DNA of 64,000 nt from a virus (IMGVR_UViG_3300031784_000003); one strand, 5' to 3'. Numbered from the stretch's first letter, positions 2,009 through 62,884 are shown. Made by a program: numbers and translations. The notes: generated by a model from the sequence alone, not told the origin.

Positions 2009-2037
2009 TATTTTTAAGATATTTATCCATATAGAAT

Positions 2038-2045
2038 ATATTTAT
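2038..2045 (+). promoter_or_regulatory. ATATTTAT candidate late promoter (second copy at 2019-2026)
   Basis: Exact 8-mer 13 nt before the ATG at 2059; recurs before many late genes. Confidence 0.5.
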
Positions 2046-2058
2046 TAATAAAAAAAAT

Positions 2059-2856
2059 ATGGATATTAAAAAAATTACTGAACAAGAAGTCAACGACTTA
2101 ATAAGTAAAGAAAAAATCGACTTATCTTCTTTTGAGGTTAGAAGTACTTTAAATCCTAAAATATTCGATGTAGATCAACATATGCATGAAGAAATACGTA
2201 GAAGATTACTTATGATAGCAGATGACTTTTTTGAGACTTTAAAGGTTGAGTGGGTAGACATACAAGATATTATATTAACAGGTAGTTTGGCAAATTATAA
2301 TTGGTCTAAATTTTCTGATGTAGATTTACACATTTTAATTGATTTTGAGGATGTGGATGAAAATATAGAATTAGTTAAAGAATATTTTACATCTAAAAAA
2401 AATTTATGGAATGAAAATCATGATATAACAATTAAAAATTATGACGTAGAACTATACGTTCAAGAAACTAAAGAACCTCACGTATCTAGTGGGGTTTATT
2501 CTGTTTTATGGGATGGATGGGTTATAAAACCTGACGCAACCAAAAAAGAAATAGATTCAAAAAAAGTAGAACAAAAAGTAAATTCAATAGTAGATACCAT
2601 AGAAGAAATTTATTATATGTATAAATCTGGTGAATACGATAAAACTATTAGAATGGTAAAAAATCTAAAAGATAAAATCAAAAAAATGAGACAAACAGGT
2701 TTAGATAGAGAAGGTGAATACTCTTATGAAAATATATCATTTAAAGTTTTACGTAGAACAATGTATTTAGATAAATTAAGTGATATAGAAACTAAGGCAT
2801 ATGATAAATCATTAACTTTAGATGAGTCTATTAATAATAATAAATTTAAAATATAA
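2059..2856 (+). CDS. Pol-beta superfamily nucleotidyltransferase
   Basis: ILTGSLANYNWSKFSDVDLHILIDF (GS...DxD) plus a third acidic residue in YDVELYVQE. Confidence 0.8.
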   Translation: MDIKKITEQEVNDLISKEKIDLSSFEVRSTLNPKIFDVDQHMHEEIRRRLLMIADDFFETLKVEWVDIQDIILTGSLANYNWSKFSDVDLHILIDFEDVDENIELVKEYFTSKKNLWNENHDITIKNYDVELYVQETKEPHVSSGVYSVLWDGWVIKPDATKKEIDSKKVEQKVNSIVDTIEEIYYMYKSGEYDKTIRMVKNLKDKIKKMRQTGLDREGEYSYENISFKVLRRTMYLDKLSDIETKAYDKSLTLDESINNNKFKI

Positions 2857-2876
2857 TTTTTTTTAATAAAAACGTA

Positions 2877-2884
2877 ATATTTAT
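2877..2884 (+). promoter_or_regulatory. ATATTTAT candidate late promoter
   Basis: Exact 8-mer 14 nt before the ATG at 2899. Confidence 0.5.
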
Positions 2885-2898
2885 TTATAAATAATAAT

Positions 2899-3219
2899 AT
2901 GGGAACAACTTATTTAACAGGTACGTATTCTGTAATCCATACAAACACTACTGCAAATTTTGATAACTATGTATATAGTGCGGTGTATTTTAATACCACT
3001 GGTTCTTACACAATAAATGGTGTGTCAGTATCAGGTGTGGCAGGTAGTACATTAGATGGCATTATTAATGGTGCTACAACTACTTTAAATTCAGGGTTTT
3101 TACTTTTAGGTAATTTAAAAGCACAAGGTGTTATACCTACAGGATTAATAACTGCGACTGGTGGAACAGAACAATACCAATTTGTAAACATAAAAACAGG
3201 TTTACCGACTAACGGATAA
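2899..3219 (+). CDS. Thr/Gly-rich hypothetical, probably virion-associated
   Basis: 106 aa, beta-rich T/G/N composition, downstream of the late motif. Confidence 0.7.
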   Translation: MGTTYLTGTYSVIHTNTTANFDNYVYSAVYFNTTGSYTINGVSVSGVAGSTLDGIINGATTTLNSGFLLLGNLKAQGVIPTGLITATGGTEQYQFVNIKTGLPTNG

Positions 3220-3237
3220 AAATTAAATAGAAAATAT

Positions 3238-5100
3238 ATGAAAAATTATGTAAATCCTAAAACATTAAAAGGTCAAGATAAATTAAATAGAATGCTAGAT
3301 CTTATGGGTAAAATGAATACTTTAAACGAAAGTAAATCATTTTCTGAATTAGAACTAATCAAAAGAGGTCCTAATGGTATAGTATATGGTATAATTAGAG
3401 AAAATCACGATTACTTCATTAAGACATCAGAAAAAAAATCAGGAAAGTTCTTAGCTGAAGATTTTAATTATATTGGAGGACTTCAAAATAAATTTGATGA
3501 AAGATACCACTCTTATTCGGAAGCCTTGAAACGTTTAAATATCAAATTCGATATGTTAAATGAATCTTACGGTATTAAAAATAATACAAACATTTTTGAA
3601 TCTGATGGTAGAGCAGTTGCTGGAGGTGCAGGATTTGGATTTGTATTAGAGAAAGAAGAAGAGATTATTTCTGATGAAGAAAAAAAAGTATTAAAGGTTG
3701 ACGCACCTAAACCTAAATCTAGTGAATCACCTGATGCGGGTCAAGCACCTGTAGAGGATGAAGTATCCGATGAACCAGATGTTGATATGGGTGGAGATAT
3801 TGCAGATATGGATTTTGGTGATGAGGAATCAGATACAGAAGAATCGGATGTGGAAGAAGACGGAGATGACACAACTAAAAAAATACAAAAAATGACTGGT
3901 AAAATCGGTCAGATGTTAAGAGATAAAGAAGAAGTTGATCCTGAATTAGAAAAATATGTAATAAATTCTATTATTTCAGCATTACATTTAGATGAAATGG
4001 ATGAAAGTGATAAAGAAGATATTATTGCAAAAATAGAAGGTGATGAAGAAGAAGGTGATGAAGAACCTGTTGGTGATACTGAAGAACCTGTTGGTGATGA
4101 TAGTTCGGAAGAACCTGTTGGTGATACTGAAGAACCTGTTGGTGATACTGGTTCAGAAGAACTTTCGGAAGAAGTTTCTAAATCAGAAAAACCATTAGAG
4201 ATTACACCTGATATGATAGCGATGTTATTAAAAGATGGTAAATGTGAATGTTCTGGACATAAATTAGTATATAAAGAAAAAGGTACTAAAAAAGATACTA
4301 ATGAAAGTAGAGTATTTAGTAAAAAAAGATTAATGGAATCTTTTTTAATAAATGAAACTAAAAAATCACTTAAAAAAGTTTTAAGAGAAGAAAGAAGTAT
4401 ATGTGAAGATTGTATGGGATTTGGTTGTCCTAGTTGTGCAAATGATTTAGGAAACGATCCATTTATGATGGATGAAGAAAAGTTTACAGACGGTAGAAAA
4501 AAAATAGATAGAGCAAAACCTTATGGTAAAATTACACGTGCTGATTTTGAGGCTTTAAGGAGAGATAAAAAAAATGAAGGTAGAAGAGATAGAAGAAGAA
4601 GTTTGATAGATGAGGATGAAATGTCTATGATGGACGCAGTACAAACAGGACAAGGTTACTTACCTACAGGTGATTTAGATAGAGATTTTGATGGTATTCC
4701 TAATAGACTAGATATGGATAACAATTCGGATGGTAGATTAGATTATTCTAATAATAATGGTAGATACGGTAACAAAAGAGATAACGATGATTTTATAGAA
4801 TTAGATATTGACTTTTTAAGAAATAATTCTCCAGTTAAACAACCAGGAATCGGTACTCCAGTTACTAAACCACCTAGAGAAAAGAAACCTTGGGAAACTA
4901 TTAAAAGACCGCAAGTTGATCCTAGACCTAAGGCTAACTCACCAGTTAAAGAACCTGGAATTGATAAACCAATCACTAAACCACCTAGAGAAAAAAACCC
5001 TTGGGAAACTATTAAAAGACCAAAAGTTGATCCAAGACCTAAGGCGTTAGATGATGACAATAATAAACCTTCATTTAGAAGGAGAGGAATGTTTAGATAA
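3238..5100 (+). CDS. Large acidic mosaic protein, probable head/prohead-associated
   Basis: 620 aa; acidic linkers, CxxC-x4-CxxC (CEDCMGFGCPSC), DxDxDG motifs, C-terminal 37-aa duplication, several (I/L)xE motifs. Confidence 0.8.
   Translation: MKNYVNPKTLKGQDKLNRMLDLMGKMNTLNESKSFSELELIKRGPNGIVYGIIRENHDYFIKTSEKKSGKFLAEDFNYIGGLQNKFDERYHSYSEALKRLNIKFDMLNESYGIKNNTNIFESDGRAVAGGAGFGFVLEKEEEIISDEEKKVLKVDAPKPKSSESPDAGQAPVEDEVSDEPDVDMGGDIADMDFGDEESDTEESDVEEDGDDTTKKIQKMTGKIGQMLRDKEEVDPELEKYVINSIISALHLDEMDESDKEDIIAKIEGDEEEGDEEPVGDTEEPVGDDSSEEPVGDTEEPVGDTGSEELSEEVSKSEKPLEITPDMIAMLLKDGKCECSGHKLVYKEKGTKKDTNESRVFSKKRLMESFLINETKKSLKKVLREERSICEDCMGFGCPSCANDLGNDPFMMDEEKFTDGRKKIDRAKPYGKITRADFEALRRDKKNEGRRDRRRSLIDEDEMSMMDAVQTGQGYLPTGDLDRDFDGIPNRLDMDNNSDGRLDYSNNNGRYGNKRDNDDFIELDIDFLRNNSPVKQPGIGTPVTKPPREKKPWETIKRPQVDPRPKANSPVKEPGIDKPITKPPREKNPWETIKRPKVDPRPKALDDDNNKPSFRRRGMFR
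4060..4146 (+). repeat. 4 copies of GAAGAACCTGTTGGTGAT (EEPVGD), coding
   Basis: Copies start at 4060, 4081, 4108 and 4129. Confidence 0.9.
4825..5046 (+). repeat. 111-bp tandem duplication encoding a 37-aa Pro/Lys-rich unit
   Basis: NSPVKQPGIGTPVTKPPREKKPWETIKRPQVDPRPKA followed by NSPVKEPGIDKPITKPPREKNPWETIKRPKVDPRPKA. Confidence 0.9.
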
Positions 5101-5498
5101 TGAATTTAGTATATATAAATAAAATTGGGCAAAACTGGAAAGGGAACTATATTTATGAGTTCCTTTTTTCAGATACGTTAGAGGATATTGATGGTGATGG
5201 TTGGGATTCATACCCTTCATCAGGAAATCCTGAACCACCTGAAAATAAATTTATAAAAAAATCTGGTTCATTGACTACAACACTTAAATTAGATTTGGTT
5301 CAAGAATCTGATTCTTTCGCAATGTGGGATGCCGTAGATGGTATAATCGCATTAGGGTGGGAAAATATGGAAGGTTATGACGAATACCCTGAAAAAAGAT
5401 TATTTTTCACATTTGGTGAAAAAATTAATTCAGTAGAAGACAAACTATATGAAAAAGATTTAGTCATAAAATATGAAAAAGAAATAATAAACATATAA
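5100..5498 (+). CDS. Hypothetical protein
   Basis: 132-aa ORF overlapping the upstream stop codon (TAATG). Confidence 0.8.
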   Translation: MNLVYINKIGQNWKGNYIYEFLFSDTLEDIDGDGWDSYPSSGNPEPPENKFIKKSGSLTTTLKLDLVQESDSFAMWDAVDGIIALGWENMEGYDEYPEKRLFFTFGEKINSVEDKLYEKDLVIKYEKEIINI

Positions 5499-5508
5499 AT
5501 TATTTGTT

Positions 5509-5790
5509 ATGAAAAATAAAATTAGACTTTACGAATCTGAAATTAAAAGAGCAGTTAGACGTAAATTAATGGAAAGATACATTGATGAAGTAGAACAAAT
5601 GACAGTTTATGATCAAGACGAATTTAATAGTTCTTTTAATAAATTAGAAAAAGGTTCTTATGGAGTAAAAGATGATCAAGGTAAGATACGTTCTGTAACA
5701 GTGAATGAAGATGATGAGGACTTAGATGATTCACGAATGGTAGGTAGAAATAGAAAAGGGATTAAACCTTTTAAAGGTAAAAGAAAATGA
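5509..5790 (+). CDS. Hypothetical, probable head protein with basic leader
   Basis: MKNKIRLYESEIKRAVRRKLME leader. Confidence 0.7.
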   Translation: MKNKIRLYESEIKRAVRRKLMERYIDEVEQMTVYDQDEFNSSFNKLEKGSYGVKDDQGKIRSVTVNEDDEDLDDSRMVGRNRKGIKPFKGKRK

Positions 5791-6506
5791 AAAAAATAGA
5801 TATATTAAACGAAGTATTCACTGAAAAACAAAGACGATGGGCTTGTTATCAAATGAATGCACCTAAATCGGAAAGAGAATTATCTAAAACTAAGGCTACT
5901 GAAATGTGTAAAGACGTTAAACATTCTAAAAAAAAGGATGAAAATGTTAAACCAAAGATGAAAAAAAAAGATTTAGTTGAGTATATTAATAAAAAAATGA
6001 TTAATATTGTAAAAGAAAATTCTGGTGAGATTTTTATAGTTACTGAAATACCTGCATTAGAAAAAAAAGAAATATTTAGATTTTTTGAACAATTAAGACA
6101 AAGTGGTGTTATCAACATGTTCGGTTCATCCCCAATATTAAATTGGACTAAGGAAGACTTACATAGATGGTTATATGGTATGGGTAAAGATGTTGAATCT
6201 TTAGAATCTGAAATAGAAGAATTAGAATATGAAATAGAAGAATTAGAATATGATAATGAAGAAGGTGAAAATGATATTGAGATGTTACAATCTGAATTAA
6301 AAAACATTAGACATTTATTAGAAACCATTAACTATTTATTAGAAAATAAAAATAAAATTAGAGATATTTTAATAAGGGCAGCTTTAACTAGATTAGAAAA
6401 TAGAGGTGATAAAGACCCTGAAATAACAAAAGTTCAAAGAGTTTTTGAACAGTTGTCAAAAGAATGTTTTAAAATGTGGACAACGGCATTATACGGAAAT
6501 AGATAA
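5787..6506 (+). CDS. Hypothetical helical protein
   Basis: 239 aa, ATGA overlap; 21-bp tandem duplication (EIEELEY)x2 at 6210-6251. Confidence 0.8.
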   Translation: MKKIDILNEVFTEKQRRWACYQMNAPKSERELSKTKATEMCKDVKHSKKKDENVKPKMKKKDLVEYINKKMINIVKENSGEIFIVTEIPALEKKEIFRFFEQLRQSGVINMFGSSPILNWTKEDLHRWLYGMGKDVESLESEIEELEYEIEELEYDNEEGENDIEMLQSELKNIRHLLETINYLLENKNKIRDILIRAALTRLENRGDKDPEITKVQRVFEQLSKECFKMWTTALYGNR

Positions 6507-6520
6507 AATAAATATATACT

Positions 6521-7945
6521 ATGAGAAGAAGAAACATAATTAGTGAAGTTACTAAAAGAGTACTTTCCGAAAAAGTTAGAATTAGAAGAATAACTGAAGC
6601 AATAGAATATGATCCTGAACATCCAGAAAGAATGAATCCTGGGTTAGAAGGTAAACTTAGAAGTGGTGAACATATTTTCGGTAAAAGTAAATCGTTACCT
6701 GTTGGATCCGACATTCAAAATTATTCTGAAAAATTAGCTGGACAAAGGTTTAAAGAAATAATCAACAAAGTTAAAAGATATCATGGTGTTAGAAATATTA
6801 CACCAAATATGATGCAAATGATGTTTCAAATAATGGGTGAAATAAGTCAAATAGAAACTAGACATAAAGAGGCGTTAGAAAGATTAGCAGTCGATATAGT
6901 ATCAGAAGAATTTGATTTACCTGAACAAATGTTAGAGGCTACTTTAAGTCCTCCAGGATCACCATTAAGTCATAAAGAAGATGATGAAGAAGAAGATGGT
7001 GATGACACTGAATCACCCCAACCTAATATTCCTAAACAACCTAAAAGTGCTAAAAGGATGGAAGAATTGGAGTTAGAAGTAGATAAAAGGAGAGTAATAA
7101 ATGCATTAATGCAGGGGGCAGCTAAAAAAGGACACTATATATTTCATATGGTAGCAGATGAATTAGACGCAATTGATCCAAGATTAATGGGATTATATGG
7201 TAAATTAATGTCATTAGCAGATTTCCAATATTGGGTAATTCCTGATACTATGATGACTGGACAAGTTGGTGGTGTAGAGAAGATAGACTGGAGAAAGGCT
7301 GAGAAACCTAAAAATAAAGATGAAGAAGAAGATATGGAAGATGCCAACATAGAAGAAGGTGATGAAATACCAGTAGTTGTTGCAAAAGCTTGGATATTCC
7401 CTCTTTTAGTTCATGAATTAATTAAAGGAGCTTTAGAGTTGGCAGCAATCAATTGGGCAGATGGTCATTTAGATTTTGATGAACATAAAGAAGTTATCGA
7501 AAAGGCTGATACGGATGAAGGTGAAATATGGGGAATGAGATTAGGTCCTGGTATGTGGGAAAAATTCTTAGATTGTATTGGTACAGAGAATTATGATATA
7601 AAACAATGGTTATTTAAAGAATTAAGTAAATTACCAGCAAAACAATTTCATGATTTTATGAAAGAAATTTTAAGTGGAAGTCAAAAATGTGGTGAGGTAG
7701 TAGATACATTAAAAAAATTACATCAAAAAAGTAGTGGTGATAGTTTATCAGATATGTTTGACGATACAGGTTATGATGATATGGGTGACATATTAGATAA
7801 CTTAGGTAATGAAACTGAAACTGAAGAATCTGATGAGGACGTTGACTATTCTAAAATGTCTAAAAGAGAAATAGAAACTTTAATTAATCAAGCGTTAGAT
7901 GCAGGTGATTTTGATTTAGTGGAAAAATTACATAAATATATGTAA
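6521..7945 (+). CDS. Hypothetical protein of the head module
   Basis: 474-aa ORF with basic leader MRRRNIISEVTKRVLSE. Confidence 0.85.
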   Translation: MRRRNIISEVTKRVLSEKVRIRRITEAIEYDPEHPERMNPGLEGKLRSGEHIFGKSKSLPVGSDIQNYSEKLAGQRFKEIINKVKRYHGVRNITPNMMQMMFQIMGEISQIETRHKEALERLAVDIVSEEFDLPEQMLEATLSPPGSPLSHKEDDEEEDGDDTESPQPNIPKQPKSAKRMEELELEVDKRRVINALMQGAAKKGHYIFHMVADELDAIDPRLMGLYGKLMSLADFQYWVIPDTMMTGQVGGVEKIDWRKAEKPKNKDEEEDMEDANIEEGDEIPVVVAKAWIFPLLVHELIKGALELAAINWADGHLDFDEHKEVIEKADTDEGEIWGMRLGPGMWEKFLDCIGTENYDIKQWLFKELSKLPAKQFHDFMKEILSGSQKCGEVVDTLKKLHQKSSGDSLSDMFDDTGYDDMGDILDNLGNETETEESDEDVDYSKMSKREIETLINQALDAGDFDLVEKLHKYM

Positions 7946-7963
7946 AATTTTAATAAAAAAGTT

Positions 7964-7995
7964 AATCCCATATTAATAATATGGGATTTTTTTTT
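7964..7995 (+). terminator. Rho-independent terminator
   Basis: Stem AATCCCATATT / AATATGGGATT with a 3-nt loop, then a T-run. Confidence 0.85.
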
Positions 7996-8003
7996 ATCTA
8001 ATA

Positions 8004-8011
8004 ATATTTAT
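8004..8011 (+). promoter_or_regulatory. ATATTTAT candidate late promoter
   Basis: Exact 8-mer directly after the terminator, 6 nt before the ATG at 8018. Confidence 0.5.
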
Positions 8012-8017
8012 TACTAT

Positions 8018-9034
8018 ATGAGAAATATTATAAAAAAAATATTAAGAGAAAGTACTGAAACACCTAAAAGAGTTTTTAGGTATATAGATAGTATTGTAGA
8101 ACATTTTGAATGGGACATAGATTCAATAATGGAAGATTTGGAACAAAATTTAAATCTGTCAAAGGTTGACGCATATACTTTGTTATTTGAATATTATATC
8201 AGTAAGGGTGATGACCCAACAAAAGACATTGATTTTCAGGATATAACTTACTATGTATATACAGAAGATTTACTTAAAATATTAAATAATAGTGGTTGGT
8301 TAGATAAATATCTAAAAAATAAAGACTCATTTCCAAGAGATTTTAGAGACATTGAGGAGATTGGTGATGGTGAAAGATTTATTCTTAAACTTGATGATTG
8401 GGAGGAGTTTAAATGTTTATTTGATGATGATAATTTGGCGCAAAGAGTTTTAAATTCTGATTGGGCAGAACTATATGGTTGGTTTGATGTTGATTTCTCA
8501 GATGATATTGTAGATATATTAAATAAAGACACAATAAAACATATTCAAGAATATGTAAAAGAAAAAGGTTTAATAGGTAAGGAACTAGAAAATAGTGATG
8601 GTGAGGTGTTAACAGAAGAAATGGTTAATGATGAGGGTATTTTACTAGAACTGATAGGTGAAGATGAATTATTTTATGATTTAAAAGATCTTTTAGAAGA
8701 TGCATATAGAGTCTCATACGATTCTGCTGCCGAAGATGAAATTTTTAAAATATTAGAAGGTCATATAACTTCTTTTTTTGGTAACAAACCTGAATGGGTA
8801 GATGGAAACAAATTACATATAGATGTTACTACAATTTTTTACGACTTTTTAGTTAGGTATTTAACCAATAAGGGTGAAATGCCTAGTTTTTCACAAAGTT
8901 ACTTCTTGGATGTAATTTGTGAAACTTTAGAAGAAGAAGACGGAAAATTAATTACGCCCGATATGGGTTACTTTTATCCTGATAGTGATTTAGTTGCAGA
9001 ACATTTAAGTGACTACATAAAATCTAATATATGA
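8018..9034 (+). CDS. Acidic hypothetical, probable internal head protein
   Basis: 338 aa, leader MRNIIKKILREST, very D/E-rich body. Confidence 0.8.
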   Translation: MRNIIKKILRESTETPKRVFRYIDSIVEHFEWDIDSIMEDLEQNLNLSKVDAYTLLFEYYISKGDDPTKDIDFQDITYYVYTEDLLKILNNSGWLDKYLKNKDSFPRDFRDIEEIGDGERFILKLDDWEEFKCLFDDDNLAQRVLNSDWAELYGWFDVDFSDDIVDILNKDTIKHIQEYVKEKGLIGKELENSDGEVLTEEMVNDEGILLELIGEDELFYDLKDLLEDAYRVSYDSAAEDEIFKILEGHITSFFGNKPEWVDGNKLHIDVTTIFYDFLVRYLTNKGEMPSFSQSYFLDVICETLEEEDGKLITPDMGYFYPDSDLVAEHLSDYIKSNI

Positions 9035-9165
9035 AAATAATTATAACCGAAAATCAATATAAAAGATTATTATCTGAAGAATAAATAGGGACAGGTAACA
9101 ATGTTACATACACATTTGGTCCAAACTACGATGAATGGGAAAATGGTAATCTGATTGCTTTTTAA
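9031..9165 (+). pseudogene. Leader-only mini-ORF (17 aa) with an in-frame tail; possible gene relic
   Basis: ATGA overlap with the upstream stop; MKIIITENQYKRLLSEE, TAA at 9082-9084, then 26 more open codons to TAA at 9163-9165. Confidence 0.5.
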
Positions 9166-9174
9166 TCTATAACC

Positions 9175-9182
9175 ATATTTAT
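9175..9182 (+). promoter_or_regulatory. ATATTTAT candidate late promoter (terminase)
   Basis: Exact 8-mer 12 nt before the ATG at 9195. Confidence 0.55.
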
Positions 9183-9194
9183 AAATAAAATGTT

Positions 9195-10988
9195 ATGGAA
9201 AGAGCGGAACAATTAAAAGTATATGCTCGTAGTTTAGGTGACCCAATTTATGCAATAGAAACTTTTTTAAAAACATTCGATTTAACTCAAAGTGGCAACG
9301 TTCCATTTAAATTATTTTATAAACAAAAAGAAATAATTAAATCGTATGAAAAGTATAATCGTAATTTGGTAACTAAACCTCGACAGGCAGGTGTATCCAC
9401 TACCACTGCCGCATATATCGCAGTTAAAACTGCATTTGGTGATCCAGATAACCCACATAAAGTATTGATATTAGCCAACAAACAAACATTGGCACAAGAA
9501 TTCCTTAAAAAAGTTAAAGACTTTTTAGATCAAATACCTTATTGGGTGTGGGGATTAGATGAAGATACAGATTATTTAGAAATAAATTCAAAAGGACATT
9601 TAAAGTTAAAATCAAATGGTTGTGAAATTAGAGCACTTGCAACTTCTAAAGATGCGTTAAGGGGTTTTACTCCGACATTTTTAGTTATGGACGAGGCGGC
9701 GTTTATCGATAATGGTTCTGAAGTTTTTGGTGCGGCGTTGGCTTCATTAGGTACGGGTGGTAAAATATCCCTTATATCTACACCAAACGGTATGGATCCA
9801 TTGTATTATAAAACATATGATGGTGCTAAGAAAAAAGACAATAATTTCAATATAGTTGAGATGAAATGGTATCAAGATGTTAGATATAATAGAAACTTAT
9901 ATTGGAAAAGAGGTGAAGAAGAAACTATTAAATGTAATACTTTAGATAGAACTAAATTGAGGTGGGAATATATGGATAAAATATATGAAACTGATGAATC
10001 TACTATAGAGTATTATGAAATAATGATTAAAGATGGTTGGAAACCATTATCCCCTTGGTATGAAGAAATGGCGGCAGATATGGGGGATGCTAAAAAAATC
10101 GCACAAGAACTTGATGTTTCATTTATTGGTTCAGGGGGTAACGTAGTAGATGATGAATATATCTCATATCACGAAGAAAATTATGTTAAAGATCCTGAAT
10201 TTTCTGCAGAAGTGGAAAAATCTATGTGGATATGGAAAAAACCAGAAGTTGGTCACAAATATATTATGGGTGTCGATGTAAGTAGAGGTGATGGTAAAGA
10301 TAGTTCTACAATAGTAATTTTAGATTTTGAAAATTTAGAACAGGTGGCAGAATTCCAACATAAATTACCTCCCGATATGTTAGCAGAAATAGTCTATAAG
10401 TATGGTAATATGTATAATGCTTACACTATAGTAGATATAACTGGTGGTATGGGTGTTGCAACAGTTTTAAAGTTGTTGGAGATGGATTACAAACATTTAC
10501 ATTATGATGATCCAAAAAGTAGGAAACTTAGTGAAAAATATGCCAAAATGAAATATAAGGAAGGTGAAAAAGTTCCTGGTTTTAATGTAGGTAATACTAG
10601 ATTACAAATGGTTTCTGAATTAGAAGAACATATTAGAGAAAATAAAACTTTAATTAGATCACAAAGAATGATATCGGAGTTAAGAACTTTTGTATATAAA
10701 AATGGTAGACCCGATCATATGGAAGGTTATCATGACGATATTATTATGGCTTTCGCTATGTGTATTTTTGTGGTACAAACATCATTCAAAAAATTAGAAC
10801 AAGTTGAAAAACAAACAAAGGCTATGTTAGAGAGTTGGGTTAATATTTCTAATGATAATCCCTCAAAACCATTAATGGATAATACTTATGTTAACCCTTT
10901 TTATAGTAACACACCAACATATCACCCAAAACAAAATAATGAGACAAATGATAATGGTGAATATAACTGGTTATTCGGTATTAAATAA
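9195..10988 (+). CDS. terL: Terminase large subunit (T4 gp17-like)
   Basis: Walker A KPRQAGVSTT, Walker B LVMDEAAF, ISTPNG, nuclease motifs GVDVSRGDGKDSS and HDDIIMA. Confidence 0.95.
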   Translation: MERAEQLKVYARSLGDPIYAIETFLKTFDLTQSGNVPFKLFYKQKEIIKSYEKYNRNLVTKPRQAGVSTTTAAYIAVKTAFGDPDNPHKVLILANKQTLAQEFLKKVKDFLDQIPYWVWGLDEDTDYLEINSKGHLKLKSNGCEIRALATSKDALRGFTPTFLVMDEAAFIDNGSEVFGAALASLGTGGKISLISTPNGMDPLYYKTYDGAKKKDNNFNIVEMKWYQDVRYNRNLYWKRGEEETIKCNTLDRTKLRWEYMDKIYETDESTIEYYEIMIKDGWKPLSPWYEEMAADMGDAKKIAQELDVSFIGSGGNVVDDEYISYHEENYVKDPEFSAEVEKSMWIWKKPEVGHKYIMGVDVSRGDGKDSSTIVILDFENLEQVAEFQHKLPPDMLAEIVYKYGNMYNAYTIVDITGGMGVATVLKLLEMDYKHLHYDDPKSRKLSEKYAKMKYKEGEKVPGFNVGNTRLQMVSELEEHIRENKTLIRSQRMISELRTFVYKNGRPDHMEGYHDDIIMAFAMCIFVVQTSFKKLEQVEKQTKAMLESWVNISNDNPSKPLMDNTYVNPFYSNTPTYHPKQNNETNDNGEYNWLFGIK

Positions 10989-11004
10989 CATTTAATTTTT
11001 TAAG

Positions 11005-11012
11005 ATATTTAT
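11005..11012 (+). promoter_or_regulatory. ATATTTAT candidate late promoter (portal)
   Basis: Exact 8-mer 25 nt before the ATG at 11038. Confidence 0.55.
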
Positions 11013-11037
11013 TATAATAGTAATAAAATAAAATATA

Positions 11038-12966: not shown

Positions 12967-12984
12967 TTTTTTTACATTTAATCT

Positions 12985-52092: not shown

Positions 52093-52190
52093 AGAAAATA
52101 TTTTTTTTATCTATAAATATAAAAAAAATGGTTAAAATGTAAATTCGTATTGTTTTTTTCACTATCTTTACATTATAAAATTAAACAACT

Positions 52191-54074: not shown

Positions 54075-54623
54075 TTATATTTTAGATTCGTATATTATTA
54101 ATTTTTGTATTCTTAATATTTCTTCATAAACTGGTTTACCTCTCATTACTTGACCACTAATGTCCTTACTAATTTTAGGTATTTTTATTTTTAAAGATTG
54201 TTTATTAATTTTATTATTATCTTTTTCGTGTTGTTTTATAAATTGATTTGCTAAACCTGTTTCACTTTTTATCTTTTTAGGTGCTTTAATAGATTCAGTT
54301 TCTTTTTTAAGTGTTGACTCTACCCAGTTATTCATAGTTTTACCACCATTTAATCTGTATTCGATATCGTCATGTTTACCTTCATAATTATCAAACCAAT
54401 TTTTTATTCTTTTCATTTGTTTATATTCTATTTTTTTATTTTCTAGAATACCTTTAGCCCTTTTATATCCCTCAGTTGGTTTATTATTTGCAATATCTTC
54501 TTTTTTTAAAGTTTCATAAGTTTTTACTGCATTACCAATAGCGTTCAACACATAATTAGGGCAATTATAATATTTCCCATGTAATTTACTATTACCCCCT
54601 TTATTTTTCTTCCTGTTCGCCAT
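54075..54623 (-). CDS. Basic hypothetical protein
   Basis: 182 aa, Lys-rich. Confidence 0.75.
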   Translation of the reverse strand: MANRKKNKGGNSKLHGKYYNCPNYVLNAIGNAVKTYETLKKEDIANNKPTEGYKRAKGILENKKIEYKQMKRIKNWFDNYEGKHDDIEYRLNGGKTMNNWVESTLKKETESIKAPKKIKSETGLANQFIKQHEKDNNKINKQSLKIKIPKISKDISGQVMRGKPVYEEILRIQKLIIYESKI

Positions 54624-55437
54624 ATTTTATTTTATCACCTATAATTTCTCTATGTTCTTCTGATATTGAATTAACATCTAAATTATCAATTAAGAAATTT
54701 AAAAGAATTGATAACTCATCACCTTTCAAATTTTCTTTATGTATTAAATCCAATAAACTATTAATTTTTCTTATAACTATTGGTTTTTCGTGTACATCCT
54801 TCAATTCAGTAATATCAGGTATAGAAATCTTATCCACCATAATATCTACCTCACCTATCCTTTTAACAAAATCTTTTGAGTCATCTCTTTTACTTCTAAT
54901 AATTTCATCCACTAAAGACTTCATAGAATTTTCATTTTCTGAAAGATCAATATCAAAAGTTGTATCATAAGGTAGTTTATATCCTCTCCATTCTTCTGAA
55001 GGTAAATGATCATAAATTGGATCAGATGGTTTATAATAATGTTTACTAATATCTTTATCTGCCATCATCTTAGCCTCTCTGTTTTTTCTATCTCTATCGT
55101 CTCTACTATATTTTTTAGAAGGGACTACATCCAATTTATCATATAATTCATCGTCTACATTTAACATTTCTTCTTCCTCATTAACGACATAGGAATAATT
55201 AACACCGTAATAAGGTCCACCATATATAAAGTATGCCTCAGGTCCTTGAGTAGAACTTCTAACATAATCATCGGTAGTTTTTTTAGACTTTATAAAATTT
55301 CTATTTTGTTTATAGTTATTGTTACGATTTATAAGAGCCCCATTAGTCCCTATTAGTTCATTAATTTGGACTTCCTCAACAATATTTTTTTTAGTTAAAT
55401 ATTTATTAATATCAGACTTTTTAAATGTTTTACTCAT
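54601..55437 (-). CDS. Hypothetical protein
   Basis: 278 aa, first gene of the minus-strand block. Confidence 0.75.
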   Translation of the reverse strand: MSKTFKKSDINKYLTKKNIVEEVQINELIGTNGALINRNNNYKQNRNFIKSKKTTDDYVRSSTQGPEAYFIYGGPYYGVNYSYVVNEEEEMLNVDDELYDKLDVVPSKKYSRDDRDRKNREAKMMADKDISKHYYKPSDPIYDHLPSEEWRGYKLPYDTTFDIDLSENENSMKSLVDEIIRSKRDDSKDFVKRIGEVDIMVDKISIPDITELKDVHEKPIVIRKINSLLDLIHKENLKGDELSILLNFLIDNLDVNSISEEHREIIGDKIKYGEQEEK

Positions 55438-55453
55438 AATAAAGTTTTTTTAT

Positions 55454-55482
55454 ATAAATATATCGTAATTCTAAATATTTAT
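55454..55482. promoter_or_regulatory. Divergent pair of ATATTTAT motifs
   Basis: Minus-strand copy at 55454-55461 faces the ATG at 55437; plus-strand copy at 55475-55482 faces the ATG at 55497. Confidence 0.6.
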
Positions 55483-55496
55483 TTTAAAATAAAGTT

Positions 55497-58397
55497 ATGC
55501 CAATAAATAAATTTACAACATTATTAGATCTTTCTAGACAAGCCAAAATATTGACAGGTGAAACTGCCACTTTTGATGGTAAAATATCTTCAGGAATACC
55601 ATTTAGCGGATACCCTACAGGCGTAGATACTGCAACAACAGTTTCTTTAGGTGTAATATCCACACAAACTGCAGTATTTAGTGGAGGGACAGGTACAACT
55701 GTGTTTGATGTTTCAAACATATATTCACCTTATTATAACCCTTCATTTGATGCATTTAGTGCAGATACTTGGTCAAACCCATTATTTTCGGCAAATACAT
55801 CAGGTTTAACTTTACCAATTACTATTTTACTTACAGGTCCAGATGTACAAATAGTTGGACCGTTTTGGACTTTAACACAAACGGGATATACTGGAGAATA
55901 TATTATCGGAACTCAATATACAGGTTATTCTGTCACATATTCTTTTAATAGCGTTACAACAATTTCTTCGACAGATACAATTAGTGGATTTACTACGGCA
56001 TCACAAGAGATTTTTTCTGCAGGAACTTTAGATTATAAAGGTCCGTTAGATTATTTATATACGTCAGAGGATGCAACCATAAAAGGTAGATTAACCACAA
56101 ATAAATTAACTATAGAGAATGGTGCTAGTTCAGCCACCACAAATTATCTATTAACACAAGTTGATGATAGTGGTAAAGCTGGGTGGGCATCTCCATCATC
56201 ATTACTTTCGGGAATAACTACATTGGATTATGTGTTAACAAATGGTAATACTACAGGATCTAATTGGATTGTAGTTGATAGTGGTTACGGATTAAATTCT
56301 CAAAGTAGTTCATTTTATTCTCAGGTTGGAGTTTCTCCAACAATCATAAATATATACACTGGTGATGATTTCGCAACCGCAAGTAAATGGTCTAGAATAA
56401 GTGCAGAATCATTTACACCAACACCAAGAGCTGACATAACAACAAATGATGGTGTTAGTCAAACTAATTTAGGGGTAACAAAAGATAATATACTCGTTCA
56501 AGGAGATGATCCTGGATTTAGTGGTATAGAATATTTTGCTGATTACTCAACAAACTATACAAACAGAAGTTTAGTAGATAAAGAATATGTTGATCTTAAT
56601 TCAGGTTCGGATTTTACTGGGGGTACGGTAACGGGTACAACAACATTTACAAATGGTTTAAGTGCAAATACAATATCTGCAACAACAATAGGGTCATCAG
56701 GTGATTGTGTGGATGACATTTATGTTTCAAACATTCATTCTTGTTCACCTTTAAATATAAACCCACTCGATGAAGGAAATATTTATTTTGGTTCTTCTAG
56801 TGGTATCACAATTGACTTAACAAACAAAAGAGTTGGTATTGGGACAAATAACCCTCAATACCCATTAGAAATTAGTGGGGCAACAAATGAGAGGTTTTAT
56901 TTTTCTCCATCATCCATCGCTCCTACAATATCATTAGTTTCAGACGTAACAAATCAATTAACTCAATTCGTGATAGGTCAAACAGTATCGAGCATTGGAG
57001 TATCAATGGGTGTAAGAGGTTCAACTGAACCAACATTTTCTACTTATGGAAAACAGGGTGATTCATTTATTAGGGCAGGAGACTTTTCAAATGGATTGAA
57101 TATCATAGAAGGTCCAAACGGAACTAAAGAAAATTATATTAGATTTTATGCTGGACAAACCGCAGATCCATCAAACATACCTGATATACATATTCAGGGG
57201 TCAGGGACAACAAGAGGTTATATAGGTGTACGAACCTATTCGCCAGAATATTTAATTGATGTTAATGGTAATAGTACCAGACTTCTTTTGGTAGATACCT
57301 ACACTGGTGCGGACGCACCCTTCAAAGGTTTTGTATTCTCTGGTAATAGTAATAACGTACCACAAATAGTTGTCTCAACTAGTAATATTAGTGGTGGTAA
57401 TGGGTTGGGTTTACAAATGGGTGTTTTGGGTAATAATATAACACCAACAAGTAGTACACAATTGCTTGGTACTTTGGGTGATACATATTTAAGTTCAAAC
57501 GCACAGACAAACAACTTTAATATCCTTAATAGAAATGGTGGTAGTGGTACTAACCACATAAGAATGTATGCTGGTGTGAATAGTGTTACTGCAGCACCAA
57601 ATTCAGATTTCCATATTCAAGGTGATGGGGTAACAAGAGGTTACATTGGTATAAATACAGATACTCCAATAGAAAGAATACACGTAGTTAGTACATTATC
57701 TAGTAAAATTAGATTAGATGCTGATATTAATAATACAGATGAAACCGCTACTGCTGAAATATTATTAACTCAAGATGGTTATGGTAGTACTGCAAATATT
57801 GGTATTTCTGCAGATGTTAATAATGATTTATTGATTGGTGTAAACTCTGGTGGTGGTACAACTCCAGATATTAGATTTAACACTCGTTCTGATGGTACAG
57901 TTTTTACTACGAGTGCCGACACAAAAATGATATTAAAAAATGATGGTAAATTAGGTATTAATACAGAAAACCCTTCTGAAATATTAGATGTTAGTGGTAA
58001 AACAAAAACTATAGAATTCCAAATGACATCTGGTGCAACCGCAGGATATGTTTTAACTTCAGACGCTAGTGGTAATGCTAGTTGGCAATCAGTTTCTGGT
58101 GGTACAGGTGGTGTTCCTGAGGCAACTACCGCAACTACAACCACAATAAATTTTACAGGACAAACTATATATTATAATGCAACTACACCAGGTACTGGTA
58201 ACATATCACAAAACTTAACTGGGGCTAAGTTAGGGTTAATCCAAAAAATATATCATAATGATGTGGCAGAACCTACCTACCCTGCTGGTTGGGTTTTAAT
58301 GGGTGATGCAATATACTTCACATCTACCTTAAATATAATATATGCTGAATGGGCTACTGGTTCTAGAGTAGAATATTGGTATGTTCAAGAACAATAA
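55497..58397 (+). CDS. Long tail fibre-like protein
   Basis: 966 aa, T/S/G-rich; G(I/V)(G/N)TxxP shaft repeats and a duplicated HIQG.G.TRGYIG module. Confidence 0.75.
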   Translation: MPINKFTTLLDLSRQAKILTGETATFDGKISSGIPFSGYPTGVDTATTVSLGVISTQTAVFSGGTGTTVFDVSNIYSPYYNPSFDAFSADTWSNPLFSANTSGLTLPITILLTGPDVQIVGPFWTLTQTGYTGEYIIGTQYTGYSVTYSFNSVTTISSTDTISGFTTASQEIFSAGTLDYKGPLDYLYTSEDATIKGRLTTNKLTIENGASSATTNYLLTQVDDSGKAGWASPSSLLSGITTLDYVLTNGNTTGSNWIVVDSGYGLNSQSSSFYSQVGVSPTIINIYTGDDFATASKWSRISAESFTPTPRADITTNDGVSQTNLGVTKDNILVQGDDPGFSGIEYFADYSTNYTNRSLVDKEYVDLNSGSDFTGGTVTGTTTFTNGLSANTISATTIGSSGDCVDDIYVSNIHSCSPLNINPLDEGNIYFGSSSGITIDLTNKRVGIGTNNPQYPLEISGATNERFYFSPSSIAPTISLVSDVTNQLTQFVIGQTVSSIGVSMGVRGSTEPTFSTYGKQGDSFIRAGDFSNGLNIIEGPNGTKENYIRFYAGQTADPSNIPDIHIQGSGTTRGYIGVRTYSPEYLIDVNGNSTRLLLVDTYTGADAPFKGFVFSGNSNNVPQIVVSTSNISGGNGLGLQMGVLGNNITPTSSTQLLGTLGDTYLSSNAQTNNFNILNRNGGSGTNHIRMYAGVNSVTAAPNSDFHIQGDGVTRGYIGINTDTPIERIHVVSTLSSKIRLDADINNTDETATAEILLTQDGYGSTANIGISADVNNDLLIGVNSGGGTTPDIRFNTRSDGTVFTTSADTKMILKNDGKLGINTENPSEILDVSGKTKTIEFQMTSGATAGYVLTSDASGNASWQSVSGGTGGVPEATTATTTTINFTGQTIYYNATTPGTGNISQNLTGAKLGLIQKIYHNDVAEPTYPAGWVLMGDAIYFTSTLNIIYAEWATGSRVEYWYVQEQ

Positions 58398-58403: not shown

Positions 58404-60542
58404 ATGAGAAACAATGTACAAAAATATTATCCTTTTGAAATAAAAGTAAATACGAATATTGCTGGGTCTAGTGGTATTGGTAAATTTAAATTGGGTGTTA
58501 CTTCTTCGTCTGTACCAAAATATAGGTATTATGTTGATTGGGGTGACGGTAATTTAAGTGCCTCCACATTATCAACACCGTTAACTCATACTTATTCATC
58601 AGTTGGTGTATATAACGTTAAAGTTTATGGTCGTTTTGATAGTATATTTTTTAATGGTGATTTAGATGGGCAAAAAGTTTTAGAAGTTATAAGTTGGGGA
58701 AATATTAAATGGAGATCATTTTCGTCAAGTTTTTTTGGTTGTCCTAATTTATCTGCCATGACATCCACACCACCCATTTTAGAAAAAATAAATACTATCC
58801 CTTATTTTAATCAAGTGTTTAAAGATGCATCAAACTTTAATTCAGATATAGGTTCATGGGATGTTTCGAAAATTATCACTACAGGAAGTATGTTTTGGAA
58901 CGCAGCAAGTTTTAACAACGGAGGATCTCCATCCATATCTGGTTGGTCAACATCTAATATTGCTTTTATGTCAAACATGTTTACCAATGCATCTTCATTT
59001 AATCAACCTATAGGTTCGTGGGATGTTTCTAACGTTGTTGATATGCAACAATTGTTTAATGGCGCATCTTCATTTAATCAACCTATTGGTTCGTGGGATG
59101 TTTCTAATGTTACTGATATGGTAGCTATGTTTAGTAATGCAACTACATTTAATCAACCTATAGGTTCATGGAATGTTTCTGGTGTTACAAATATGGGAGG
59201 TATGTTTGGTAATGCATTTGCATTTAATCAACCCATAGGTTCATGGAATGTTTCTAATGTTACTACTATGGTAGGTATGTTTAGTAATGCAACTACATTT
59301 AATCAACCTATTGGTTCATGGGATGTTTCTAATGTTACTAATATGGATGCTATGTTTGGTACCGCAACTGCATTTAATCAAAATATTAATTCATGGGATG
59401 TTTCTAATGTTACTACTATGTCTAATATGTTTGGTAATGCATTTGCATTTAATGAACCCATAGGTTCGTGGGATGTTTCTAATGTTACTACTATGTCAGG
59501 TATGTTTTTTGCCGCTATAACATTTAATCAACCTATAGGTTCGTGGAATGTATCAGGTGTTACTAATATGGGAGCTATGTTTAGTAATGCTTATGCATTT
59601 AATCAAAATATTAATTCATGGGATGTTTCTAATGTTACTAATACACAACAAATGTTTCAAGGTGCAACCGCATTTAATGAACCCATAGGTTCGTGGGATG
59701 TTTCTAATGTCACTAATATGTCTCTGATGTTTAATAGTGCTATAGTATTTAATCAAAATATTAATTCATGGGATGTTTCTAATGTTAATACTATGCAACA
59801 AATGTTTAATGATGCAACTACATTTAATCAACCTATAGGTTCGTGGAATGTATCAGGTGTTACTAATATGTCATATATGTTTGCTTCTGCAAATGCATTT
59901 AATCAAAATATTAATTCATGGGATGTTTCTAATGTTAGTTTTATGTCAAATATGTTTACGAATGCAATTACATTTAATCAACCTATTGGTTCATGGGATG
60001 TTTCTAATGTTACTACTATGGCATATATGTTTAGTAATGCGACCTCATTTAATCAACCTATAGGTTCATGGAATGTATCAGGTGTTACTAATATGGGTTT
60101 AATGTTTTATTCTGCACAATCATTTAATCAACCTATTGGTTCATGGGATGTTTCTAGTGTTACTAATATGCAATATATGTTTGCTGGTTCATTATTATTT
60201 AATCAACCTATAGGTTCGTGGAATGTATCAGGTGTTACTAATATGTCATACATGTTTGAAAATGCAACCTCATTTAATCAACCTATAGGTTCATGGGATG
60301 TTTCTAATGTTACTAATATGAGTAGTATGTTGAATATGTCTAATATTAGTGTTACCAATTATAATGATATTTTAACTGGATGGACAGGATGGAATGGAAT
60401 TACTGCAACTAAAACAGTTAAACCAAACGTAGTTTTTGGTGCACAAGGAAAAAATTATTCTGCAGGTAGTGCAGCCGCAGACGCAAGAAACTATTTAATA
60501 ACAGTTAAGGGGTGGACAATAACAGACGCTGGAGGAATATAA
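58404..60542 (+). CDS. BspA/DUF285 repeat surface protein with an N-terminal PKD-like domain
   Basis: YYVDWGDG...[14 protein letters not shown] followed by about 20 repeats of [25 protein letters not shown]. Confidence 0.88.
58998..60347 (+). repeat. 18 in-frame 75-bp repeats (25 aa each)
   Basis: Exact 75-bp period from TTTAATCAACCT at 58998 to the copy starting at 60273. Confidence 0.93.
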
Positions 60543-60543
60543 T

Positions 60544-60750
60544 ATGTTAGAAATTAAAAATCATACAGAAGAAATATGGTGGATTATTAGAAAAAATGAT
60601 AATTCAGTTATACATTATGGTGTAACACCTGTGGGAATGGTTACACAATCAGGGTTAGATTTATTAGAAACGTTTACTAATGAAGAAGAACGTGATAAAA
60701 AATTATTAGATTATGGTATTACGGCAACAACTACTAACGATAATATTTAA
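60544..60750 (+). CDS. Small protein, possible fibre accessory
   Basis: 68 aa, starts 1 nt after the BspA gene stop. Confidence 0.65.
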   Translation: MLEIKNHTEEIWWIIRKNDNSVIHYGVTPVGMVTQSGLDLLETFTNEEERDKKLLDYGITATTTNDNI

Positions 60751-60794
60751 AATATTACCACCTATTAATTAATCTATAGATATTTATTATTATA

Positions 60795-62459
60795 ATGAGT
60801 AATATATACCAACATAATTTTGACAATTGTATGAAAATGAGATTAAGTAACAGTGATTACTGGGACTTATTTTTGTGTTACGATTGCGTAGATGGACAAG
60901 ATAATGATGAAATTTTAAATGAATGTATTTTAATCGATATAGATATAAATAATACTAATTCATATTCAGGAAATACTTTATATAGTTTAACAACTTGGAC
61001 AGGTGCTACAATTAATGGTAGTGGTATTACATTAAATGATATTGGGCTAACAGGTATTGACAATGGTTTGATAACATATAATTGTAATACACCCACAAGT
61101 GGACAAACTTTTTTATCTGCTTTTACAGGATCAACCTTAGCATTAACTTCCGCAGACACTAGATTTTCTATGACTAGAGTTACTGGTTGTACTTACCAAT
61201 ATCCAATCACTATAGAGACGAGTAGTCCAAAAGGTAGACACGCAAACTTATGTGGAGGATTTTATCAGGGATTTTTTAAATTGTCAGATAGAACATATTT
61301 TAAAGAGATATCAGATAATAAATTTGTTTGGCCGTTAGAATGGTTTAGATGTCCACCAGTATGTAGTGGTGAAACAATAACAGACTGTTGTGGATCAGGT
61401 AATACTAATGGAAGTAGTTCATGTATTGACCCAAATAAGGCATATCAATGTTATTTAGATTTAAAACCTGTACCATACAATTATCAAATTTTACCTGATA
61501 GATTAGGTGGTTTAAATATACCTTGTTTAGACGGTTGGACTGCAACTTTTTGGTTGAATAAAAAATCAACAAGTTGTGCAGGTAATACATTAAATAATCT
61601 TAACCCTAACAATAAAGGATTTTTCTTTTATATGGGTACTAGATCAGAAAATAAATTTTGGAATCAATTTAGTGGTGAAACAGGTTATACAACCTCATCA
61701 GGATATCCCTTACCTCCACCTATAGAATCAAAACAAGTATTAAATGATAACCCATTTTTAGTTTATACACCTAAAGGATGTGGATGTTTTTCAGGTATTA
61801 CTACTGAAATTATTTCAGAAAAAGATAGAAATTTAGACATCATAGACAACGCATTAGGATTTAGAATTAAAGATGATGGTAGTATTGGTTTTAGGAGTGT
61901 TGTATCTACAGGAGTATGTTCCGCAGTTACTGCGACTACAATAGTGGATTGTCACGAACAATGCGGATGTTGTTCTACCGCAACTACGACTTCAACAACA
62001 GTGAGTACACAATATATAACAGGTGCATCTATAAATGAATGTTATAGTGAAACTAATTTAATTACACCTGATAAATGGACACATATTGCAATAAGGTTTA
62101 AACCTTATGAACAGTATAGTGGTTGTATATTAGAAACCTTACCTAAAAGAAAAGGTCAGTTAACTGTATATGTTGATGGGTACCTTAAATGGACTTTAGA
62201 AGACTTTGACGAATTTATATTTAAAGATTTAGATGAGTATAGAGAAAAACAACAAGGTGTTCCATTTACTTATAGTTGGGGTGGTGGTACACAAGGTTTG
62301 ATAGAAAGTAATACCGTTAATGGTCCTGATTTAAAAGATAAAAATTTATTTTTACAAAATAATTTTGCAGGATCTTTTGAGGGTAAAGTATCAACATTTA
62401 AATTATATGGATGTAGTTTAGATGTTACAACAATAAGGAAAGAAATCAGTAATGGTTAA
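60795..62459 (+). CDS. Cys-rich virion protein with a LamG/concanavalin-like C-terminal region
   Basis: About 25 Cys; WTHIAIRF...LTVYVDG...FEGKVSTFKLY pattern; ATATTTAT at 60780-60787. Confidence 0.65.
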   Translation: MSNIYQHNFDNCMKMRLSNSDYWDLFLCYDCVDGQDNDEILNECILIDIDINNTNSYSGNTLYSLTTWTGATINGSGITLNDIGLTGIDNGLITYNCNTPTSGQTFLSAFTGSTLALTSADTRFSMTRVTGCTYQYPITIETSSPKGRHANLCGGFYQGFFKLSDRTYFKEISDNKFVWPLEWFRCPPVCSGETITDCCGSGNTNGSSSCIDPNKAYQCYLDLKPVPYNYQILPDRLGGLNIPCLDGWTATFWLNKKSTSCAGNTLNNLNPNNKGFFFYMGTRSENKFWNQFSGETGYTTSSGYPLPPPIESKQVLNDNPFLVYTPKGCGCFSGITTEIISEKDRNLDIIDNALGFRIKDDGSIGFRSVVSTGVCSAVTATTIVDCHEQCGCCSTATTTSTTVSTQYITGASINECYSETNLITPDKWTHIAIRFKPYEQYSGCILETLPKRKGQLTVYVDGYLKWTLEDFDEFIFKDLDEYREKQQGVPFTYSWGGGTQGLIESNTVNGPDLKDKNLFLQNNFAGSFEGKVSTFKLYGCSLDVTTIRKEISNG

Positions 62460-62470
62460 TATTTATTAAT

Positions 62471-62839
62471 ATGGAATTTTTTATAAACAAAAATAGTACT
62501 TTACCTAAATTAAAAATGGAATTGGTAAATGATGGTAGAAATGATTTTCGTAAATTTTATGAAAAAATACAAAATGCTACAATTACATTTACTATGTATG
62601 ATGTTGAGACTAAAATTAAAAAGATATCTTGTTCTCAGGCAGAAATAGAAATGTCAGTTGCAAATGATTGTGAAAATACAGAAACACCTACTTATTATAT
62701 CACCTTTCAGTTCAGTGAAAGTCAAACTAGTAAGTCTGGTAGATATAACGGTTATTTTACTATTAATTTTTTAGATGGGACAGGAACATTAATTGCCCCT
62801 ATTAGGGATGAGTTATACATAAATGTTTTAGATAACTAA
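62471..62839 (+). CDS. BppU N-terminal-like baseplate/adaptor protein
   Basis: Ig-like 122 aa with YITFQFSESQTSKSGRYNGYFTINF; ATATTTAT at 62459-62466. Confidence 0.5.
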   Translation: MEFFINKNSTLPKLKMELVNDGRNDFRKFYEKIQNATITFTMYDVETKIKKISCSQAEIEMSVANDCENTETPTYYITFQFSESQTSKSGRYNGYFTINFLDGTGTLIAPIRDELYINVLDN

Positions 62840-62884
62840 CTATAAAAAATTAAATATATAATATTTATTAAAAAATATAAATAG

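Follow-up and report, generated by a model that had tools for sequence, protein, structure and literature searches.

A recurrent AT-only box, ATATTTAT, as the likely late-promoter core of a T4-like phage lineage, and its candidate gp55-like sigma factor

Does the short word ATATTTAT, which recurs ahead of genes in a 64,000-nucleotide (nt) stretch of viral DNA (IMGVR_UViG_3300031784_000003, the whole of which is here called the window), act as a late promoter, and if so, which protein reads it? The window, with a G+C content of 28%, originates from a T4-like myovirus and carries genes for a T4-type large terminase (9195-10988), a gp20-type portal (11038-12966, Pfam E 4.9e-79), a prohead protease (14358-15047) and a gp23-type major capsid protein (16493-18232, Pfam E 7.2e-72). 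The word, called the box in what follows, is found upstream of the terminase, portal and protease genes, of the gene preceding the capsid gene and of a dozen others, on both strands. A previous sequence-only reading proposed a late promoter read by a phage sigma factor with a specificity unlike that of T4, and this is the reading best supported by the present data, as the element is strand-specific, conserved as a footprint, followed by an A at a fixed distance and associated with particle genes, and a protein with a gp55-like fold is encoded in the same window. We consider it likely that ATATTTAT is the late-promoter core of this T4-like lineage, with the gp55-like sigma encoded at 24652-25386 as its most likely reader.

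The exact box is present on the expected strand at each of the 18 coordinates listed by the sequence-only reading, and each of these copies lies upstream of a start codon of the same strand, with 4-60 nt between motif end and ATG. The accompanying caution about chance copies in an AT-rich genome holds for the window as a whole, where 33 copies are found against 29.7 +/- 5.9 in dinucleotide shuffles. The suggested check of position and strand, in turn, shows enrichment upstream of genes and in sense when compared with shuffles: upstream intergenic DNA (38 regions, 2,019 nt) has 17 sense copies where shuffles of the same DNA give 1.6 +/- 1.3, an approximately ten-fold excess (the highest sense count in 2,000 shuffles being 7), and 4 antisense copies. 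The box is the commonest 8-mer of these regions and the one most enriched relative to the whole-window background (p 2.8e-18). Intergenic DNA makes up 3.5% of the window, yet 17 sense copies are fully intergenic, with one more overlapping a stop codon; the remaining 15 copies are 13 intragenic (5 sense, 8 antisense), one intergenic antisense (6508) and one lying across a gene end (27678). The strand bias is shared by relatives, since the upstream regions of 80 related contigs contain 325 sense and 13 antisense copies (25:1). One-mismatch variants of the box show no general upstream enrichment.

The 18 upstream sites and the candidate reader are as follows.

2019-2033, plus strand: box with A(+12) and A(+14), the distal of two tandem copies before gene 2059-2856
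2038-2052, plus strand: box with A-N-A, 13 nt from ATG 2059 (phrog_36119 protein)
2877-2891, plus strand: box with A-N-A, 14 nt from ATG 2899
8004-8018, plus strand: box directly after terminator hairpin 7964-7988; ATG 8018 begins with A(+14), leaderless mRNA predicted
9175-9189, plus strand: box upstream of the large terminase gene 9195-10988
11005-11019, plus strand: box upstream of the portal (gp20-like) gene 11038-12966
12985-12999, plus strand: box upstream of gene 13006-13767
14330-14344, plus strand: box upstream of the prohead protease gene 14358-15047
15079-15093, plus strand: box 60 nt from gene 15147-16454
18294-18308, plus strand: box after hairpin 18247-18289, before gene 18318-19154
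20558-20572, minus strand: box (20565-20572) with A-N-A, upstream of gene 19146-20552
24623-24637, minus strand: box behind the sigma gene, before the small gene 24231-24614
52106-52120, minus strand: box upstream of gene 49987-52092
55447-55461, minus strand: box, minus member of a divergent pair, gene 54601-55437
55475-55489, plus strand: box, plus member of the divergent pair, gene 55497-58397
60780-60794, plus strand: box 7 nt from ATG 60795, predicted leader 1-3 nt
62459-62473, plus strand: box across the stop codon of the gene before it; ATG 62471 begins with A(+12), leaderless mRNA predicted
62861-62875, plus strand: box upstream of gene 62885-64000, which runs past the window end
24652-25386, minus strand: candidate reader, a gp55-like sigma of 244 amino acids (aa)

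The box is part of a longer element. Positions such as +12, +14 and -14 in the site alignments are counted from the box, and promoter numbering, used further below, is separate. On the sense strand the element consists of a T-rich tract, about 11 nt, ATATTTAT, 4 nt and then A-N-A. The upstream sites have A at +12 in 18/18 cases and at +14 in 17/18, site 62459 being alone in having G there; both A's are thus present at 17/18 upstream sites, against 1/15 of the other copies (Fisher p 2.6e-7). Among 154 unique sites from the 80 related contigs A(+14) is conserved in 97% and A(+12) in 84%, and the segment from +8 to +14 is almost free of G and C. The T-rich tract, at -16 to -12, also shows strong conservation, 97% of the sites of relatives and 83% of those in the window having T at -14, and its five positions hold on average 3.3 T's at upstream sites against 1.8 at other copies (p 0.003), a difference to which terminator tails contribute in part. 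The tract is not evident in Flavobacterium phage immuto. A footprint is seen in the gap between the terminase and portal genes, where all 31 unique orthologous sequences share ATATTTATTATnATA, which runs from the box to A(+14), and differ by substitutions and indels in the stretch between it and the ATG. The distance from box to A is therefore fixed and that from box to start codon variable, as predicted for a promoter and unlike what is expected of a translation signal.

The distribution of the box follows that of the genes. In agreement with the sequence-only reading, box strand switches with gene orientation and a divergent pair is present at 55454/55475, the copies at 8004 and 18294 are directly preceded by terminator hairpins (7964-7988 and 18247-18289), and the box is absent before both genes with host-type promoters (13874 and ATG 49763). 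The first of these promoters is TTGACA-17-TATACT at 13805-13833 (11/12 matches), belonging to gene 13874-14311, and the second is TTTG-N20-TATATTTG at 49710-49741, before ATG 49763. The box is likewise absent from a long, glycosyltransferase-rich minus-strand block (about 25-49 kb) and from the sigma gene 24652-25386, which starts 8 nt behind its upstream gene, at the end of a box-free operon. Since the sigma gene has no box of its own and closes a box-free operon, the sigma would be made earlier than the genes it switches on, a timing taken from the T4 paradigm. The capsid gene 16493-18232 has no box of its own either, and is probably driven from the promoter at 15079, shared with gene 15147-16454; in similar freshwater phages the capsid and upstream genes appear to be co-transcribed (Chen et al., PMC9723584). 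The intragenic copy at 16279, 206 nt upstream of the capsid gene, is probably due to chance, for its +12 position is a C and relatives differ at 16283 (T>C).

How does this element compare with the late promoters of T4? In the latter an 8-bp box spans -13 to -6, the AT-rich segment behind it is melted, and there is no -35 element (PMC2988020). As a method control, blind k-mer ranking on 50 kb of T4 returned TATAAATA as the top upstream 8-mer. When the box, written as TATTTATw, is placed at the T4 position -13 to -6, the A conserved in 97% of sites falls at +1, exactly 5 nt downstream, and the G/C-free segment that follows the box would then correspond to the melted region. Compared in this way, TATTTATw and TATAAATA have the same orientation and the same geometry and differ only at -10/-9, with TT for AA. 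The sequence-only reading had described the core as the reverse complement of the T4 box; this is arithmetically true but misleading, since the near-palindromic TATAAATA is matched equally well by the two-base variant TATTTATw.

Further likenesses are that an AT-only 8-bp box lies about one helical turn before the putative start, with an AT-rich segment between, that the box stands in sense before virion genes of either orientation, and that, as aligned, the adenines at -12 and -8 and the tyrosine stacking on A(-12) are conserved. On the other hand, the consensus is (A)TATTTAT(T/A) and not TATAAATA, with an extra conserved A at promoter position -14; a T-rich element at about -30 to -25 is conserved here and has no counterpart in T4; the leaders are predicted to be very short or absent, unlike those of T4; and the sigma, of 244 aa, is extended beyond T4 gp55 by a conserved C-terminal domain of about 100 aa. 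Predicted leaders measure 0-10 nt at 13/18 sites, provided that 62459 starts at A(+12), and at two sites (8004 and 62459) the conserved A is itself the A of the ATG. Late promoters predicted in silico for T4-related phages also vary, KVP40, 44RR and S-PM2 having a near-T4 consensus and Aeh1 an a/gC at -13/-12 (PMC2988020). These, like the present box, are lineage-specific variants of a gp55-type box found by sequence analysis; the published ones keep the AAATA core, whereas the lineage described here changes the centre of the box. No description of ATATTTAT or TATTTAT as a phage late promoter was found in the literature searched, including that on Microcystis phage Mel-JY01, on immuto and on gp55 of Bacteroidetes and Microcystis phages, and the paper on similar freshwater Bacteroidetes phages (PMC9723584) does not mention promoters or sigma factors.

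As to the candidate reader, the protein of 244 aa encoded at 24652-25386 matches the PHROG family phrog_234, annotated as late sigma transcription factor, with E 3.6e-5, and Pfam Sigma70_r2 below threshold; 35/50 diverse members of its family match Sigma70_r2. The family comprises 1,282 clusters at 50% identity, all of them unnamed. Its profile aligns to gp55 by hhalign with E 7e-5, matching region 2 of cyanobacterial SigA slightly better, and a phmmer comparison of the sigma with gp55 is marginal (E 0.13). The predicted structure (pLDDT, the predicted local distance difference test score, 90.5) has T4 gp55 in the clamp-dependent activation complex (7d7d_F) as its top match among 48,161 PDB representatives, with Z 10.8 and a root-mean-square deviation of 2.6 A over 96 residues. 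It consists of a gp55/sigma-2-like N-terminal domain (residues ~16-120) followed by a conserved, confidently folded helical C-terminal domain of ~100 aa, an architecture unlike the gp55 pattern of a single domain of ~185 aa with a C-terminal clamp-binding tail.

In T4, gp55 flips the non-template A(-12) into a deep pocket, where it stacks on Y97, accommodates A(-9) in a shallow pocket between N13 and H95, and holds A(-8) in a second deep pocket, bonding T99 (PMC7892883). The sigmas of phages with a TATTTAT-type box all have the Y97 equivalent, and carry G or T in place of N13 and Y or F in place of H95; in the numbering of the window's own sigma these two replacements are G20 and Y97. In the box, A(-12) and A(-8) are retained and the bases at -10/-9 differ from T4; their correspondence with the altered residues of the -9 pocket is suggestive, on the alignment, of a matched change in both partners.

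The box and this type of sigma are also found together in cultured phages. The closest cultured relatives by portal are Mel-JY01 (41% identity), which infects Microcystis, and immuto (34%), which infects Flavobacterium; uncultured portal relatives are numerous, at 80-93% identity. Both cultured phages have the TATTTAT core before structural genes: blind ranking of the Mel-JY01 structural region returned ATATTTAT itself as the top upstream 8-mer (9 sense, 0 antisense copies), and that of immuto [A/C]TATTTAT(A). A tblastn search with the sigma type over 50,697 phage records retrieved only four immuto records, Mel-JY01 and one uncultured jumbo phage, and canonical sigma-70 regions 2 and 4 are both missing from the complete genomes of Mel-JY01 and immuto. 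The hosts come from two phyla and differ in promoter type, so that the gp55-like sigma is the factor that the box users have in common, which argues against both host sigma and additional phage sigmas as readers. It is from this co-occurrence and from the structural comparison that we infer the link between sigma and box. In Mel-JY01 the box lies 33-37 nt upstream and is followed by a separate Shine-Dalgarno sequence; the leader is adapted to the host. In the window, Shine-Dalgarno cores precede 6/69 genes.

Several other explanations have to be weighed. The one that survives best, although we regard it as unlikely, is that the box is a promoter read by a different phage sigma, RpoD-like or ECF-like (extracytoplasmic function) and encoded elsewhere in the genome, with the gp55-like protein doing something else. 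A two-domain sigma would be in keeping with the T-rich element conserved ~12 nt before the box, and a close relative, G001, does encode two canonical sigma-70-family proteins of 272 and 190 aa. The box position and the conserved A match gp55 geometry, however, and Mel-JY01 and immuto share the core box while having only the gp55-like protein.

More improbable still is that the box is the site of a late activator, or of some other DNA-binding protein aiding the host RNA polymerase, rather than a sigma element. A conserved 8-mer could be an operator, and the sigma contact proposed here is itself deduced; but a single, directional, non-palindromic copy at -10 geometry, with an AT-only segment for melting and a conserved purine at the start, is -10-like, and a cognate gp55-like sigma is present.

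We give very little credence to the box as a variant of the -7 element of host promoters, read by the host primary sigma, perhaps modified by the phage. Bacteroidota primary-sigma promoters, which are probably the host's own type, have TTTG at -33 and TAnnTTTG at -7; they are AT-rich, and ATATTT is common to the box and to the form TATATTTG at 49734-49741, which together with the rarity of Shine-Dalgarno cores and the occurrence of a Bacteroidota-type promoter in the window speaks for such a reading. The defining G of TAnnTTTG, however, is always A in the box, and a T before the first A is not preferred; TAnnTTTG occurs once in sense across all upstream regions; the T-rich element lies ~12 nt from the box, compared with 19-21 nt for the host TTTG; and the same box is used by a cyanobacterial phage, whose host has promoters of a different type.

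Equally slight is the probability that the box acts in RNA, as an enhancer of translation initiation or a processing site before late genes. It is always in sense and near start codons, and the host probably lacks Shine-Dalgarno recognition. Its distance to the ATG varies from 4 to 60 nt and is shifted by indels in relatives, though, while that to A(+14) is invariant; boxes stand directly after terminators, where a new promoter is required; each of the divergent genes has its own copy; and in Mel-JY01 box and Shine-Dalgarno sequence are separate.

Chance in an AT-rich genome, which the whole-window count would allow, is excluded as an explanation, since none of 2,000 shuffles reaches the intergenic sense enrichment, the strand ratio in relatives is strongly skewed and flanking positions are invariant.

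It should be noted that several observations weigh against a late promoter read by the gp55-like sigma. Start sites are predicted from the alignments, and the available transcript data are assembled contigs, which carry no 5'-end information. G001 has its two canonical sigmas beside the gp55-like one (C1:24902-25528 and C1:89815-90252, with regions 2 and 4 each above the Pfam cut-off), hence three sigma factors in one phage lineage, and given these another reader in this lineage is possible. The uncultured 484-kb jumbo phage with a partial sigma match (LR756508) shows no enrichment of TATTTAT among its upstream 8-mers. The T99 equivalent is G, S or Q and so not conserved, although the box keeps A(-8), and the pocket alignment, on whose register MAFFT, phmmer and hhalign agree, is made at ~19% identity. 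No gp33 was recognised, the small gene after the sigma matching T4 gp33 by hhalign with a probability of 0.2%, so that the T4 activation mechanism cannot simply be transferred; a Pfam PF09116 search for a sliding clamp in the records of five relatives gave no match, but was equally silent on the control genomes. Finally, sense copies inside genes are fewer (5) than in codon-shuffled genes (13.2, p 0.006), but other 8-mers of the same composition are equally depleted and a box-specific avoidance was rejected.

The late-promoter reading can be put as a sequence of steps. TATTTATw would occupy -13 to -6, with transcription starting at the conserved A five bases downstream, or two bases earlier at some sites. 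The gp55-like sigma, bound to host core RNA polymerase, would recognise the box, with the non-template adenines at -12 and -8 flipped into protein pockets as in T4, and the TT that replaces AA at -10/-9 would be matched by the altered residues of the shallow -9 pocket. Made earlier in infection, the sigma would then turn on head, packaging and other virion genes, and many of the late mRNAs would have leaders of 0-10 nt, fitting a host that does not use Shine-Dalgarno sequences. The strategy, a phage sigma with a -10-only late box, is a known one; its novelty here lies in the consensus, in the paired changes of the pocket, in a sigma with an additional domain and in leaders predicted to be very short.

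Two features, the extra C-terminal domain and the T-rich element conserved at about -30 to -25, would also be compatible with a bipartite mechanism that needs no clamp. It is conceivable, if rather doubtful, that the late sigma is a two-domain factor whose C-terminal domain, possibly region-4-like, binds the polymerase flap and reads the T-rich element, so that these would be bipartite promoters independent of gp33 and clamp. Folded alone for the structure search, this domain gives weak matches to sigma region 4 (sigmaE Z 5.2 over 68/69 residues, sigmaH 4.6, SigA 4.4), with unrelated helical proteins tied (best Z 6.0), and no Pfam region-4 match was obtained. If true, such a sigma would link ordinary sigma factors to T4 gp55 as an intermediate form, and the late mRNAs that it gives rise to, in hosts that make no use of Shine-Dalgarno sequences, would for the most part have no leader or almost none.

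Several consequences would follow from the late-promoter reading. A validated model would allow temporal gene classes to be assigned from sequence alone for phages abundant in lakes, and would flag unknown proteins as virion or late products. The lineage would represent a natural swap of specificity in gp55-type recognition, in which the deep-pocket adenines are kept while the -10/-9 bases and the -9 pocket residues change together. Cultured pairs with the same box and sigma type are at hand, namely immuto on Flavobacterium sp. LMO8 and Mel-JY01 on Microcystis. Very short leaders and an extra sigma domain are also of relevance to the synthesis and translation of late mRNAs in Bacteroidota.

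Some minor observations concern the surroundings of the box and the sigma. The small minus-strand gene after the sigma, 24231-24614, is syntenic in Mel-JY01 (L085:2244-2639) and immuto (L086:2221-2571) and encodes proteins of 116-131 aa with an acidic C-terminus; those of the two cultured phages look related to each other, and the window protein is 17-22% identical to them. A role as sigma co-factor would be pure speculation. The 14-nt gap 6507-6520, before ATG 6521, holds the sole intergenic antisense copy of the box, and its sense strand shows a T4-like ATAAATAT. In the box-free glycosyltransferase region, ATATTTAC and ATATTTAG are found ~40 nt upstream of three minus-strand genes (27720, 31224, 49681), and these variants may be a weaker or different promoter class.

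Of the two genes with host-type promoters, 13874-14311, of unknown function, lies within the head-gene cluster, and in the gap before it (13771-13873) a terminator-isolated host-type promoter replaces the late box, so that it resembles an inserted early gene or moron. The second is a small plus-strand gene (ATG 49763, ~74 aa; 49710-49987) inside the minus-strand block, whose product has a lipoprotein-like signal peptide with a Cys; its exact Bacteroidota-type promoter at 49710-49741 hints at the phylum of the host. The window also encodes a thymidylate synthase, of which the stretch 305-594 has 78% nucleotide identity with its counterpart in immuto; in a megablast comparison with phage records, the first 20 kb gave no other match. 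Amid box-preceded genes, 58404-60542 encodes a 712-aa protein with about ten DUF285 (BspA-like leucine-rich) repeats (Pfam score 1082), which may be a fibre or host-recognition protein.

Finally, five lake metatranscriptomes contain 6-12% of the words of the segment 8000-17999. Four lake sets were compared with positions 1-20000, as assembled contigs, in which start sites are unreadable. One contig bridges the box at 12985. Apparent contig starts at 15145 were set aside, as they coincide with a repeat stretch (15120-15144) skipped by the tool. In all four sets, which come from different studies, the capsid gene 16493-18232 has the highest contig cover, a depth that does not serve to rank genes, and phages of this group occur in those four lake RNA libraries.

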